This document shows positions 5,864 to 52,683 of a DNA stretch of 64,000 nucleotides, one piece after another. The DNA is from Flavobacteriales bacterium. Lineage in GTDB: Bacteria; Bacteroidota; Bacteroidia; Flavobacteriales_D; UBA2798. The position numbers and the translations under genes are program-made. The stretch lies in NCBI GenBank assembly GCA_019694795.1, contig JAIBBF010000001.1, forward strand, positions 262,265 to 326,264, given 5' to 3'. Below the pieces are notes generated by a model, which worked only from the letters and a program-made list of their open reading frames with translations, searched no databases and was not told the origin of the DNA. The number at the start of each line of letters is the position of its first letter. The first letter of the stretch is position 1.

Positions 5864-5915
5864 TGCAATTGTATTTACAGGGTAAAAATAGAATTGGATA
5901 CTCAAGAAAAAAATT

Positions 5916-5944
5916 TTGGGGGTCTAAAATATTTTTTATTTTTG
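5916..5944 (+). promoter_or_regulatory. Candidate Bacteroidota sigma-A promoter for tRNA-Gly (-33 TTG, -7 TATTTTTG)
   Basis: TTG at 5916-5918 and TATTTTTG at 5937-5944 match TAnnTTTG with 18-nt spacing, about 58 nt upstream of the tRNA. The motif is short, so chance hits are expected. Confidence 0.4.
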
Positions 5945-6001: not shown

Positions 6002-6075
<74 letters not shown>

Positions 6076-6076
6076 A

Positions 6077-6106
6077 AAACCTCTCGGAAAAGAGAGGTTT
6101 TTTTTT
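6077..6106 (+). terminator. Intrinsic terminator after tRNA-Gly
   Basis: Hairpin aaacctctc-ggaaaa-gagaggttt is followed by a T-run. Confidence 0.7.
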
Positions 6107-6158: not shown

Positions 6159-6243
6159 GCCCGGGTGGTGAAATGGTAGACACGAGGGACTTAAAATCCC
6201 TTGGGCAGTAATGCCTGTGCGGGTTCAAGTCCCGCCCCGGGTA
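6159..6243 (+). tRNA. tRNA-Leu (anticodon TAA), class II with long variable arm
   Basis: Acceptor GCCCGGG/CCCGGGT (G1:U72 wobble), anticodon stem-loop AGGGA-CTTAAAA-TCCCT, long variable arm, T arm GCGGG-TTCAAGT-CCCGC. Confidence 0.9.
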
Positions 6244-6248
6244 CAAAA

Positions 6249-6588
6249 TCAGAGCGAGAATGAGAGCGAGAGCGAACATTCTGCTCTGATTTTCCTTCGT
6301 TCTGATTCTGATTCTCATTTCGTCCACCATTAAGTTTGAATTAATGTCCAAACCAAATGTATACAGCGAGAATGAGAGCGAGAGCGAACATTCTGCTCTG
6401 ATTTTCCTTCGTTCTGATTCTGATTCTCATTTCATCCAACATTAAGTTTGAATTAATGTCCCAAACGAAAGTATACAGCGAGAATGAGAGCGAGAGAGAA
6501 CATTCTGCTCTGATTTTCCTTCGTTCTGATTCTGATTCTCATTTCGTTCAATATTAATGTTTGAATTCCAAAATTTAGAAGTTTATAA
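6249..6588 (+). repeat. Tandem repeat, 112-bp unit x about 3, running from tRNA-Leu into the start of the four-helix-bundle gene
   Basis: The string agcgagaatgagagcgagag(c/a)gaacattctgctctgattttccttcgttctgattctgattctcattt begins at 6253, 6365 and 6477, giving a 112-bp period. Each unit holds an imperfect inverted repeat, at 6256-6316, 6368-6428 and 6480-6540. Confidence 0.85.
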
Positions 6589-6901
6589 AAAGGCTAAGGC
6601 ATTTCACTCCGAGTGCAGAAAGCTAATTAATACTAACAGGCTAGATAATTACGTGAAGGACCAATTAGGGAGAGCTTCATTCAGTATTCCCTTAAACATT
6701 GCCGAAGGGAGTGGGAAATTTTCAAAGGCAGACAGAAAAAGTTTCTTTGTCATTGCAAGGGCTTCTGTTTTTGAATGTGTAGCGGTTTTAGATATACTAA
6801 GTGATGAAGAAGTAATTTCAAAAGAATCATTTCAATCACTTGTTGAAAAGGCTGAAGAACTTTTCAAGATCCTATTTTCAATGATTAGGAACCTGAGTTA
6901 A
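6557..6901 (+). CDS. Four-helix-bundle protein (23S rRNA intervening-sequence protein / S23p / Avd-like family)
   Basis: 114 aa. The N-terminal FEFQNLEVYKKA, the central SIPLNIAEGSGKFSKADRKSFF.IARAS..E, and the length all match the family pattern (NIAEG...F..IA.GS..E). Confidence 0.85.
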   Translation: MFEFQNLEVYKKAKAFHSECRKLINTNRLDNYVKDQLGRASFSIPLNIAEGSGKFSKADRKSFFVIARASVFECVAVLDILSDEEVISKESFQSLVEKAEELFKILFSMIRNLS

Positions 6902-7091
6902 TCAACACCACCCTCACCCCTATTCAAAAACAGAATTGCCGGGGAAATTTTCATTTGGAATTTTACTCTTTTAATTCCCTCGATCAATACAAAGTAGAAA
7001 AACAATTAGCGTTTTATTTGCCAAATGAAATAACCTCAACGATTTTTTCTCATGTAAATAAGGAGCAGGGTAAATCAAAAAAATAAAAAGC

Positions 7092-7123
7092 AAAAAAAAT
7101 CCCGCATGTATGGTGCGGGATTT
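7092..7123 (-). terminator. Intrinsic terminator of the lipoprotein gene 7143-7478
   Basis: Hairpin aaatcccgca/tgcgggattt, with a T-run on the minus strand (A-run 7092-7099 on plus). Confidence 0.7.
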
Positions 7124-52146: not shown

Positions 52147-52274
52147 TCCGGCCTTTCACTTCATGGTAGACCTCTTTAGACCGTCGTCTAAAGTTCAATT
52201 TGTATTAAGATGGGAATTGATTCTGTGTTTTATGAGGGATAGGTCCAGAATTTTTGCGAAATGTGGAGATCGTA

Positions 52275-52608
52275 CCCCTGAAGCAGATCCTCCTTCGTCA
52301 GATCGCTACAGGGCTATGAGGAGAAAAAATTCAGTTCTTACGTTTATTATTCTTCCCTGAAGCAGATCCTCCTTCGTCAGATCGCTACAGGGTGATGAAG
52401 CGAAAAAGTCCAAGGGTTACCTTGTAAAGGATGAAGATTGTTCCCCTGAAGCAGATGCTCATTCTTCGCATCGCTACAGGGTGATGAAGGGAAAAATTCA
52501 GTTCTTACGTTTATTATTCTTCCCTGAAGCAGATCCTCCTTCGTCGGATCGCTACAGGGCAATGAAGCGAAAAAGTCCAAGGGTTACCTTGGACTTTTTC
52601 TGCTTCAT
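52275..52608. repeat. Array of four 38-39 nt imperfect hairpin elements (R1-R4) with alternating A/B tails, equivalent to a roughly 167-bp unit x2
   Basis: R copies lie at 52275-52313, 52355-52392, 52443-52481 and 52522-52559, with consensus ccctgaagcagatcctccttcgtcagatcgctacaggg. The tails alternate: A (..aaaaattcagttcttacgtttattattctt) and B (..gaagcgaaaaagtccaagggttacctt..). The last B tail forms a long hairpin abutting tRNA-Met. Confidence 0.85.
52561..52608 (-). terminator. Long hairpin immediately 3' of tRNA-Met (bidirectional terminator-like)
   Basis: aatgaagc-g-aaaaagtccaagg-gtta-ccttggacttttt-c-t-gcttcatt has about 21 paired positions, with T5 following the core stem on either strand. 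Confidence 0.6.

Positions 52609-52683
<75 letters not shown>

Follow-up and report, generated by a model that had tools for sequence, protein, structure and literature searches.

A triplicated module behind tRNA-Leu points to a tRNA-linked cassette of the PF05635 four-helix-bundle gene

Introduction

Genes of the four-helix-bundle (4HB) protein family PF05635 are very widespread, and the only context for them that we found described in the literature is the intervening sequence (IVS) of rRNA genes. In Coxiella burnetii, the 23S rRNA IVS is 428 nt long, lies in helix 45 and carries an S23p open reading frame (ORF) (PMC4990558). The family has no known function outside Avd, the accessory protein of diversity-generating retroelements (DGR), which belongs to a homologous four-helix-bundle fold family (PMC10053308), and a study of rRNA insertions in the Candidate Phyla Radiation (CPR) termed the domain functionally uncharacterized (PMC11270868). 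In Flavobacterium psychrophilum, a gene for a 23S-IVS protein was down-regulated in biofilm along with ribosomal genes (PMC5787105), which would fit a growth-rate-coupled expression. Here, we analyzed 64,000 nt of DNA from a Flavobacteriales bacterium (contig JAIBBF010000001.1, positions 262,265 to 326,264; hereafter the window), in which a PF05635 gene stands behind tRNA-Leu(taa), separated from it by a 112-bp unit that is present three times.

We found that each unit contains a conserved, structured module that accompanies 4HB genes behind tRNA genes in many Bacteroidota. The three units are probably a lineage-specific expansion of this tRNA-trailer module, in which a leaky terminator would let a promoter-less 4HB cassette ride on the transcripts of the tRNA gene. 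As such, the repeat is a local variant in copy number; the interest lies in the conserved element and in the 4HB cassette linked to tRNA and transfer-messenger RNA (tmRNA) genes. Taken together, the data point to a widespread tRNA-linked gene cassette for which we found no description in the literature searched. A full-text search returned no paper linking the 4HB family to tRNA genes, its coverage being incomplete and novelty not proven.

Results and Discussion

A repeat array runs from tRNA-Leu into the 4HB gene

Tandem Repeats Finder reported a repeat at positions 6253-6567 (period of 112 nt, 2.8 copies, 95% matches, score 563), and a repeat search delimited the units 6253-6364, 6365-6476 and 6477-6588, with 100, 95 and 79% identity to the first one. 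The threefold 112-bp repeat given in a preliminary description of this DNA was therefore borne out by both searches. The repeat starts 9 nt past the end of tRNA-Leu(taa), and the array runs into the 4HB gene. For the annotation below, the module was scored with a covariance model (CM R1) built from a 20-sequence alignment, and hairpin T designates the stem-loop formed by its A-tract and U-tract arms. The features of the array are:

6159-6244, plus strand: tRNA-Leu(taa) (ARAGORN; Rfam 59.5 bits), at whose 3' end the module starts
6241-6329, plus strand: module copy 1, complete, with hairpin T at 6245-6293 and the pyrimidine tract at 6294-6316 (CM R1 88.7 bits, E 8e-13)
6266-6273, plus strand: apex of hairpin T, GC-GAGA-GC (GNRA tetraloop with a 2-bp clamp), a motif that recurs in units 2 and 3
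6330-6364, plus strand: tail of unit 1, the box TTAAGTTTGAATTAATGTCCAAACCAAATGTATAC, which contains TAAGTTTG at 6331-6338
6351-6441, plus strand: module copy 2, in which GTATAC replaces the A-tract half of the stem and the hairpin is weaker and shifted (CM R1 59.3 bits)
6442-6476, plus strand: tail of unit 2, second copy of the box, with TAAGTTTG at 6443-6450
6464-6553, plus strand: module copy 3, with the real start codon directly after it (CM R1 58.3 bits)
6557-6901, plus strand: 4HB gene of 114 aa, PF05635 (23S_rRNA_IVP) / TIGR02436, assigned from profile matches and homologues

The junction of unit 3 reads ATTAATGTTTG, with the ATG of the 4HB gene at 6557; the positions previously given for this codon and for the two copies of TAAGTTTG were correct. 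The encoded protein matched PF05635 with 86.7 bits (cutoff 33.8; E 1.4e-24) over profile positions 1-105 of 106 and TIGR02436 with 83 bits (cutoff 24; E 1.6e-23). Used as a query, it retrieved more than 1300 homologues and two weak relatives in the PDB (2GSC and 2RLD). A perfect 14-nt inverted repeat (6763-6776 and 6922-6935; TTCTGTTTTTGAAT and ATTCAAAAACAGAA) has one arm in the 3' part of the ORF and the pairing arm just past its stop codon.

The units differ from each other by mixed substitutions and one indel. Five metagenome contigs encode an identical 4HB protein and every one of them breaks inside the repeat; one of these (L001; L-numbers denote fetched loci, 80 of which encode relatives of the window 4HB protein) matches unit 3 and part of unit 2 exactly. 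Neither the window nor the first 91 loci that were fetched contained another copy of the 22-nt junction segment, except for L001, which represents the same locus. L090, the closest syntenic relative, has the tRNA-Gly and tRNA-Leu(taa) genes alike and a protein with 77% identity, and its 93-nt spacer holds a single module, from which we conclude that the triplication is lineage-specific.

At the unit junctions, we also observed ATG ORFs of 33 codons (6344-6445 and 6456-6557, plus strand) encoding MS(K/Q)..YSENESE.EHSALIFLRSDSDSHF..., the last of which ends in TAATG and overlaps the 4HB start codon. They are not conserved between the units and are absent from single-copy modules, and are probably a by-product of hexamer repeats.

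The module is conserved across Bacteroidota and carries a covarying hairpin

Alignment of 20 sequences showed that each repeat unit is a copy of a module of about 90 nt, conserved across Bacteroidota and starting at the tRNA 3' end. It comprises, in order, an A-tract, a stem of about 17 bp that has a single bulge, a purine internal loop, a GC-GNRA-GC apex, a U-tract and a pyrimidine-rich tract. Its consensus reads AAAATCAGAG-(T/C)-GAGAAAC, then AGA-GC-GNRA-GC-GAA, GTTTCTC-CTCTGATTTTT and CTTCATTCTCATTCTGTTTCTCACTCT, followed after 10-50 nt by ATGTTYGA... at the start of the gene. CM R1 scored 55-103 bits in dozens of loci, and in the window it hit the three units only, so that the module occurs on one of the four tRNA genes present. 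The U-tract consists of four residues in the window units, compared with five to eight in relatives. A search of Rfam 15 with 6245-6560 at E<=1 returned tRNAs and no other family, and at gathering thresholds the 64-kb window gave four tRNAs and no rRNA. Because it is absent from Rfam 15, the module is a candidate new RNA family.

Hairpin T is the structure best supported by the alignment. Its partners paired in 86% of the cells, as opposed to 40-58% when the 3' partner was slid by 1-3 columns, and its covariation score was 0.281 versus 0.084 in shuffled alignments, a value reached by none of 500 shuffles. Eight pairs were changed on both sides, the compensatory changes by which a conserved structured RNA is recognized. 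RNAalifold independently predicted hairpin T, including the apical GC/GC clamp (columns 27-34 and 28-33), with seven pairs changed on both sides. Over 79 non-redundant modules, the cognate arms had a mean energy of -19.5 kcal/mol versus -12.0 kcal/mol for non-cognate arms (0/2000 permutations). The apex tetraloop was GAGA (18), GAAA (10) or GGGA (2) in 30 of the 32 modules from protein-selected loci, and the other two have no GC clamp. In unit 1 of the window, hairpin T (6245-6293) had an energy of -24.4 kcal/mol in isolation (z -6.1) and is followed by TTTT, a stable stem-loop directly before a U-tract as in intrinsic terminators. The 11-bp pairing of 6245-6255 with 6283-6293, for which a role as the tRNA-Leu terminator had been suggested, does exist and is part of this one strongly covarying structure. 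The hairpins of unit 2 (-16.2 kcal/mol, z -3.5) and unit 3 (-15.9 kcal/mol) lack the A-tract arm and are shifted. A terminator scan flagged the sub-hairpins 6269-6287 and 6381-6399.

A different structure had been proposed in the preliminary description, namely a hairpin of about 21 bp between a purine-rich and a pyrimidine-rich arm of each unit. Under this model, RNase III would cut the hairpin and free the 4HB mRNA from a tRNA-mRNA precursor, much as in an IVS, for which cleavage of a 28-bp stem by RNase III provides a precedent (PMC4990558). Both arms are present three times in the 64-kb window, with a chance expectation of 0. Their complementarity also stood: the helix was in register in 82.4% of the cells versus 42-65% when slid, the duplex reached about -27 kcal/mol over the 79 modules, and it is the minimum-energy fold of unit 2 (z -1.9). 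However, it is the minimum-energy fold of that unit only, as the whole-unit fold of unit 1 favors the A-tract/U-tract hairpin and unit 3 adopts another fold, and no covariation was detected for this helix, the 82.4% of paired cells being equal to the shuffled mean of 82.4%. Cognate and non-cognate arms had nearly the same energy (-27.1 and -26.6 kcal/mol; 244 of 2000 permutations equal or better, p about 0.12), and variants of the 5' arm (AATG vs AAAC) are uncompensated in the distal tract (pair 22-89). In addition, the 5' arm is also used by hairpin T, which would form first during transcription, and the stem lies wholly upstream of the ORF, not around it. The purine:pyrimidine helix is a conserved pairing potential, short of a demonstrated structure, and we consider processing at this hairpin unlikely.

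Conserved leaders of Patescibacteria loci (L052, L055, L056, L060, L061, L064-L066, L068, L073, L075) also start exactly at the 3' end of a tRNA or tmRNA. They read ATAAATTTTTCG..., GAGTAGTTAGTAATTAGTATTTAGGG, ...CGAAAAATTTAT-CCCTAACTACTAATTACTCACAC and then ATGTTTGATTTT, with a pseudoknot-type A-B-A'-B' topology in which A':A plus B':B would total about 28 bp. The sequence is quite different from that of the module, and the order of elements is the same (A, purine arm B, A', then directly the pyrimidine arm B'). RNAalifold predicted B:B' in these leaders, and the helix of L061 (16/17 bp) is longer than that of the module. By analogy, this CPR helix keeps the purine:pyrimidine pairing and the RNase III model built on it alive as a possibility.

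The 4HB gene is linked to tRNA and tmRNA genes in several phyla

In the 80 protein-selected loci, which come from several phyla, a co-oriented tRNA or tmRNA gene was located within 500 nt upstream of the 4HB gene in 42 of 70 cases. The control positions gave far lower counts: 2/70 for the upstream opposite strand, 1/72 for the downstream same strand and 4/72 for the downstream opposite strand. The upstream stable-RNA genes were Leu (22), Ser (5), tmRNA (4), Arg (3), Tyr (2) and six others. In Bacteroidota, the 4HB gene is usually found 85-200 nt past tRNA-Leu (taa, caa, tag, cag or gag), and once past tmRNA. The order tRNA-Gly/tRNA-Leu(taa)/module is syntenic in many members of this phylum (L007-L009, L011, L087-L090, L117, L126, L142, L179, L195, L202). 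The linkage was also seen in loci of Patescibacteria, Chloroflexota and Gammaproteobacteria, and none of 20 CPR loci checked had the gene inside rRNA. The link of PF05635 to stable-RNA genes is thus much broader than could be seen from the window alone, and the module, first noticed as a local repeat, was found beside the gene in many 4HB loci.

A rough neighbor-joining tree of the proteins placed side by side members that sit behind different tRNAs. The Leu isoacceptors were interleaved, and one CPR clade was found behind Ser, Arg, Glu, Trp, Tyr and tmRNA. Since the neighboring tRNAs are interleaved in the protein tree, the tree argues for relocation of the leader with the ORF, which would have moved between tRNA genes rather than co-diverged with one of them.

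We then considered a second sample, picked by the module core alone. Hits with at least 55 bits in CM R1 were kept, giving 84 modules in 72 loci, and this cut removed about a dozen metagenome pattern hits that were spurious matches in coding regions. In this sample, 34 of 78 modules adjoin a called tRNA (Leu 23, Met 4, Arg 4, Glu 2, Phe 1), the 4HB gene comes next in 28 of 74, and seven modules sit behind a 4HB gene.

The tRNA-module spacers of L010, L020, L022, L036, L152 and L182 share a small recurrent palindrome, CCCGATAGCTATCGGG, with variants; the copies of L152 and L182 are part of tRNA-derived segments. This palindrome may be an element resembling the repetitive extragenic palindromes.

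Module arrays and direct repeats suggest a cassette

Arrays of the module between the tRNA and the ORF are common, with 2 to at least 11 units and periods of 59-190 nt. Such arrays contained four units in L098, three in L182, L196 and L152, at least four in L125 and at least 11 in L207, and the array of L042 has a 110-nt period and 3.3 copies.

Many loci have a direct copy of the module on either side of the ORF, and these copies sometimes also take in the last 0-7 nt of the tRNA. The bracketing copies of L014, L017, L039 and L040 have 0-1 mismatches in the first 60 aligned nt (one in L014 and L017), and modules diverge much more between loci than these copies do within the best loci. The direct repeats of L039, L040 and L017 include a short tRNA 3' end. 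In L087, the part of tRNA-Leu that reaches from the anticodon stem to the 3' end is present a second time 1.9 kb downstream, and the array units of L152 carry the segment from the T-arm to the 3' end of the adjacent tRNA-Met. At the orthologous tRNA-Gly/tRNA-Leu(taa)/module locus, the 4HB gene is variously present, absent or decayed; in L133 and L179 it is reduced to a fused start/end remnant, followed by a box (see below) and a module.

One way to read these repeats is that the module is an att-like DNA recombination site of a tiny, non-autonomous integrative cassette at tRNA and tmRNA 3' ends, the units of the window being scars or empty sites left by repeated integration and excision and not an RNA element. 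The near-identical direct repeats around the ORF, the tRNA-derived segments of L087 and L152 and the box ahead of downstream modules all fit this idea, as do the interleaved protein tree and the range of sites, since the cassette adjoins at least 12 tRNA species and tmRNA. Another gene occupies the same niche in L010 (described below), which also fits. Nevertheless, no integrase or recombinase was found in or near the cassettes examined, and the junction falls exactly at the 3' end of many tRNAs, unlike a classical attP that contains the 3' part of one tRNA. The GNRA apex and the covariation of the stem indicate selection at the RNA level. In addition, the 4HB protein had no match in 50,697 phage records, and the module pattern gave five hits in 2.9 million viral contigs, all of them to one spurious non-module sequence. 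An att-like site appears somewhat unlikely to us. A phage origin was rejected on the same two results, no protein match in phage records and no true module in viral contigs.

In L010 (~1950-2400), an intact tRNA-Leu(caa) is followed by a GIY-YIG ORF (PF01541, E 8e-9) with its own terminator, and then by a displaced tRNA 3' fragment, a module and a 4HB gene. This ORF is a second kind of selfish gene in the same tRNA-Leu niche.

The triplication could also be a neutral minisatellite, generated by slippage in a repeat-prone spacer and without effect on expression. Unit boundaries and periods differ between lineages over the range given above, hexamer sub-repeats abound in the module, units 1 and 2 are recent according to their 95% identity, and the close relative L090 has one copy. 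Against this, many lineages have such arrays, invariably at one position and in one orientation, and each additional unit adds a hairpin and a U-tract to the sole transcription path to the ORF, making a complete lack of effect unlikely, although neither point proves a function. We regard a purely neutral repeat as doubtful.

Five loci (L021, L024, L030, L034, L041) have long hexamer microsatellites upstream of the 4HB gene in place of a recognizable module. These reach about 21 copies and include (CATTCT)n, (GAGAGT)n and (GAGAAA/GAGAGC)n.

Very often, contigs assembled from short reads stop 40-360 nt ahead of these 4HB genes (L001-L005, L019, L025-L028, L032, L040, L043). Module arrays appear to be a systematic cause of assembly breaks beside tRNA genes, to judge from where these contigs stop, and modules may explain such breaks in Bacteroidota metagenomes.

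Unit tails match a family-wide box rather than a promoter

The 35-nt tail of units 1 and 2 matches a box, AAGTTYGA-TAAT-TCCAAcCC...GGTAY, which elsewhere precedes modules that are not beside a real tRNA, often right behind the 4HB stop codon. The best alignment of the tail was with the box of L133 (score 15, reached by 3 of 2000 shuffles), and 8 of 2000 shuffles attained its mean score against 19 boxes. The tail was not significantly similar to the 3' end of the tRNA-Leu in the window itself (p 0.29), and we rejected the candidate explanation of the tail as a decayed copy of that end.

The box resembles the start of the 4HB ORF (ATGTTYGAAYTCCAA), and the AAG versus ATG difference between them is seen across the family. 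For this reason, the two versions of the unit end in the window are better read as box versus ORF start than as a 1-nt indel that turned a -7 box into a start codon, which had been the earlier interpretation. The distal ends of the units were also said to share the first 30 nt or so of the ORF; the homology was retained and its length was not, since units 1 and 2 share only about 11 nt (ATGTTTGAATT) with the ORF.

The conserved ORF start, ATGTTYGA(A/T)TTYCAA (6557-6571 in the window; L006-L091), resembles both a tRNA T-loop/T-stem (GGTTCGAATCC) and the box of downstream modules. This resemblance could be either a recombination core or a coincidence.

We also examined whether TAAGTTTG could be a promoter element. 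No TAnnTTTG was found upstream of the start codon in 16 related spacers, three of which match only as T+ATGTTTG across the ATG itself; TAAGTTTG upstream of a start codon is thus unique to units 1 and 2 of the window, and a -7 box as a family feature was rejected. A sigma-AB promoter combines a conserved TAnnTTTG at -7 with TTTG at -33, and the sequence offers no clean -33 element. Since canonical spacers lack a Bacteroidota -7 box, a tRNA-mRNA co-transcript is the simplest route to 4HB expression. The alternative is that the boxes at 6331-6338 and 6443-6450, both perfect TAnnTTTG motifs, are functional and that duplication gave the 4HB gene promoters of its own. A TCTG lies about 20 nt upstream (three of the four letters of TTTG), and one of the 33-codon ORFs starts just past each box. 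However, the motif arises trivially from the TTA + AGTTTGA of the box family, related spacers offer no usable equivalent, there is no good -33 element, and transcripts starting at these boxes would still have to cross one or two module hairpins. New promoters in units 1 and 2 are, in our opinion, very improbable.

Expansion of a tRNA-trailer module is the favored explanation

The explanation that we favor is the lineage-specific expansion of a trailer module, with 4HB expression by read-through from the tRNA. In the normal state, one module stands between a tRNA, mostly tRNA-Leu, and a promoter-less 4HB gene. Hairpin T would end most tRNA transcripts, and the 4HB gene would be expressed from the fraction that reads through, the RNA being processed at the tRNA 3' end. 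Module and ORF together would form a small cassette that relocates from one tRNA 3' end to another, with recombination taking place at the module or the end of the tRNA. In the window, recombination or slippage within the array may have produced ORF-less units upstream of the ORF-bearing unit 3; as units 1 and 2 are 95% identical, the ORF-less unit would have been duplicated after it was formed. Units 2 and 3, which lack the A-tract arm and like unit 1 have four U residues, would be extra weak attenuators or neutral.

Several points weigh against this explanation. A hairpin of -24 kcal/mol could end nearly all transcripts and leave the 4HB gene silent, and the TAAGTTTG boxes could serve as new promoters. 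CM R1 found no module downstream of the 4HB ORF in the window, and the flanking repeats seen elsewhere could have arisen by tandem duplication and subsequent loss instead of by integration. No enzyme that would account for mobility was found: there is no recombinase within about 3 kb of the window cassette, and the ORFs beside the cassettes of L087, L086 and L043 have no recombinase domain, the two ORFs of L087 being without any Pfam match. In the module-selected sample, 46 of 74 modules have no 4HB gene and 44 of 78 have no called tRNA, and because of this the module is not strictly a 4HB leader. Finally, this explanation leaves the conserved pyrimidine tract unaccounted for.

A broader reading may be offered tentatively, and we would not yet expect it to hold in full: the standalone PF05635 clade would consist of cross-phylum, promoter-less cassettes, each an A-B-A'-B' leader plus ORF, that insert exactly at tRNA and tmRNA 3' ends, just as relatives insert within rRNA, ride on stable-RNA transcription and move without a recombinase of their own. 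They would be a previously undescribed small selfish or regulatory element, and the 4HB protein may have the hairpin as its RNA ligand. The linkage to tRNA and tmRNA genes, the covarying module and the cassette behavior provide handles on the role of the 4HB protein and on its spread.

Other features of the window

Three further features flank the array and its gene:

6002-6075, plus strand: tRNA-Gly(gcc) (ARAGORN; Rfam tRNA 70.2 bits)
6076-6101, plus strand: simple terminator-like hairpin with a T-run behind tRNA-Gly, unrelated to the module (terminator scan; inverted repeat)
7097-7123, scored on both strands: terminator-like hairpin between the 4HB gene and a convergent lipocalin-like gene (terminator scan)

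From its position, the last hairpin is likely the 3' end of the 4HB transcript. Upstream of tRNA-Gly, TTTG-N18-TATTTTTG at 5915-5944 is what we take to be a promoter-like sequence. The neighbors of the 4HB gene encode a TerB-like protein, a lipocalin-like protein, RecQ and a large surface protein.

A second tandem repeat is found at 52267-52591 (periods 79, 89 and 167); its units number about four and contain a CCCTG...CAGGG hairpin each. This repeat belongs to the trailer of tRNA-Met(cat) (minus strand, 52609-52683), past a terminator-like hairpin at ~52566-52597, and about 165 nt after tRNA-Arg(ccg). Its sequence family differs from the module, and the theme of repeats behind a tRNA is alike.

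Comparison with known systems

The DGR context was rejected, there being no reverse transcriptase and no adenine-specific variation. Unlike DGR Avd genes, the window gene has no reverse transcriptase within about 3 kb and no template repeat/variable repeat pair, and the differences between the units are not adenine-specific.

Integron cassettes with attC sites share more features with this locus, such as small promoter-less ORFs, an imperfect palindrome of ~60-140 nt with a bulged base, arrays beside a fixed site and the existence of ORF-less units. The GTTYGA-type boxes are, however, direct and not inverted, the array holds one kind of ORF only, and neither an R''/R' pair nor an IntI-like gene was seen by inspection, no dedicated attC search having been made.

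Likewise, the direct repeats that include a tRNA 3' end (L039, L040, L017, L087, L152), the use of tmRNA and tRNA-Leu as sites and the tandem arrays at the site recall the integrative elements of tRNA and tmRNA genes. The cassette differs from them in its size (about 450-600 bp), in having no integrase and in a junction exactly at the end of many tRNAs; the unit tail of the window also does not appear to derive from the local tRNA-Leu.

Like intrinsic terminators or attenuators past tRNA genes, the module has a U-tract behind a stem-loop directly after the tRNA, an A-tract mirroring that U-tract and a stable tetraloop at the apex. In contrast to ordinary terminators, its loop and internal-loop sequence and a downstream pyrimidine tract of 25-30 nt are conserved across families and tRNAs, and modules are arranged in tandem or as direct repeats on both sides of a gene.

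The 23S IVS remains the closest described system, and the preliminary description had proposed an IVS-like cassette or a processed tRNA-mRNA transcript. The tie to stable RNA was upheld by the linkage found in 42 of 70 loci, and the specific IVS features were not, as the locus lies outside rRNA and the ORF is not enclosed by a stem. An IVS is situated within a 23S rRNA gene, in helix 25 or 45, and inverted repeats at its two ends bracket the ORF and form a long stem. Unlike in an IVS, there is no rRNA in the 64 kb according to Rfam, the complementary arms are both upstream of the ORF, no long inverted repeat brackets the ORF in the window, and a terminator-like hairpin at the tRNA 3' end has the best support of the structures. 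As in an IVS, the gene belongs to PF05635 and is tied to a stable-RNA transcription unit without an evident promoter of its own, complementary purine and pyrimidine segments lie beside the ORF, and the distribution is sporadic, like that of a selfish element. The locus is not an IVS but would work like one in one respect, with a 4HB ORF riding on a stable-RNA transcript and complementary segments beside it.

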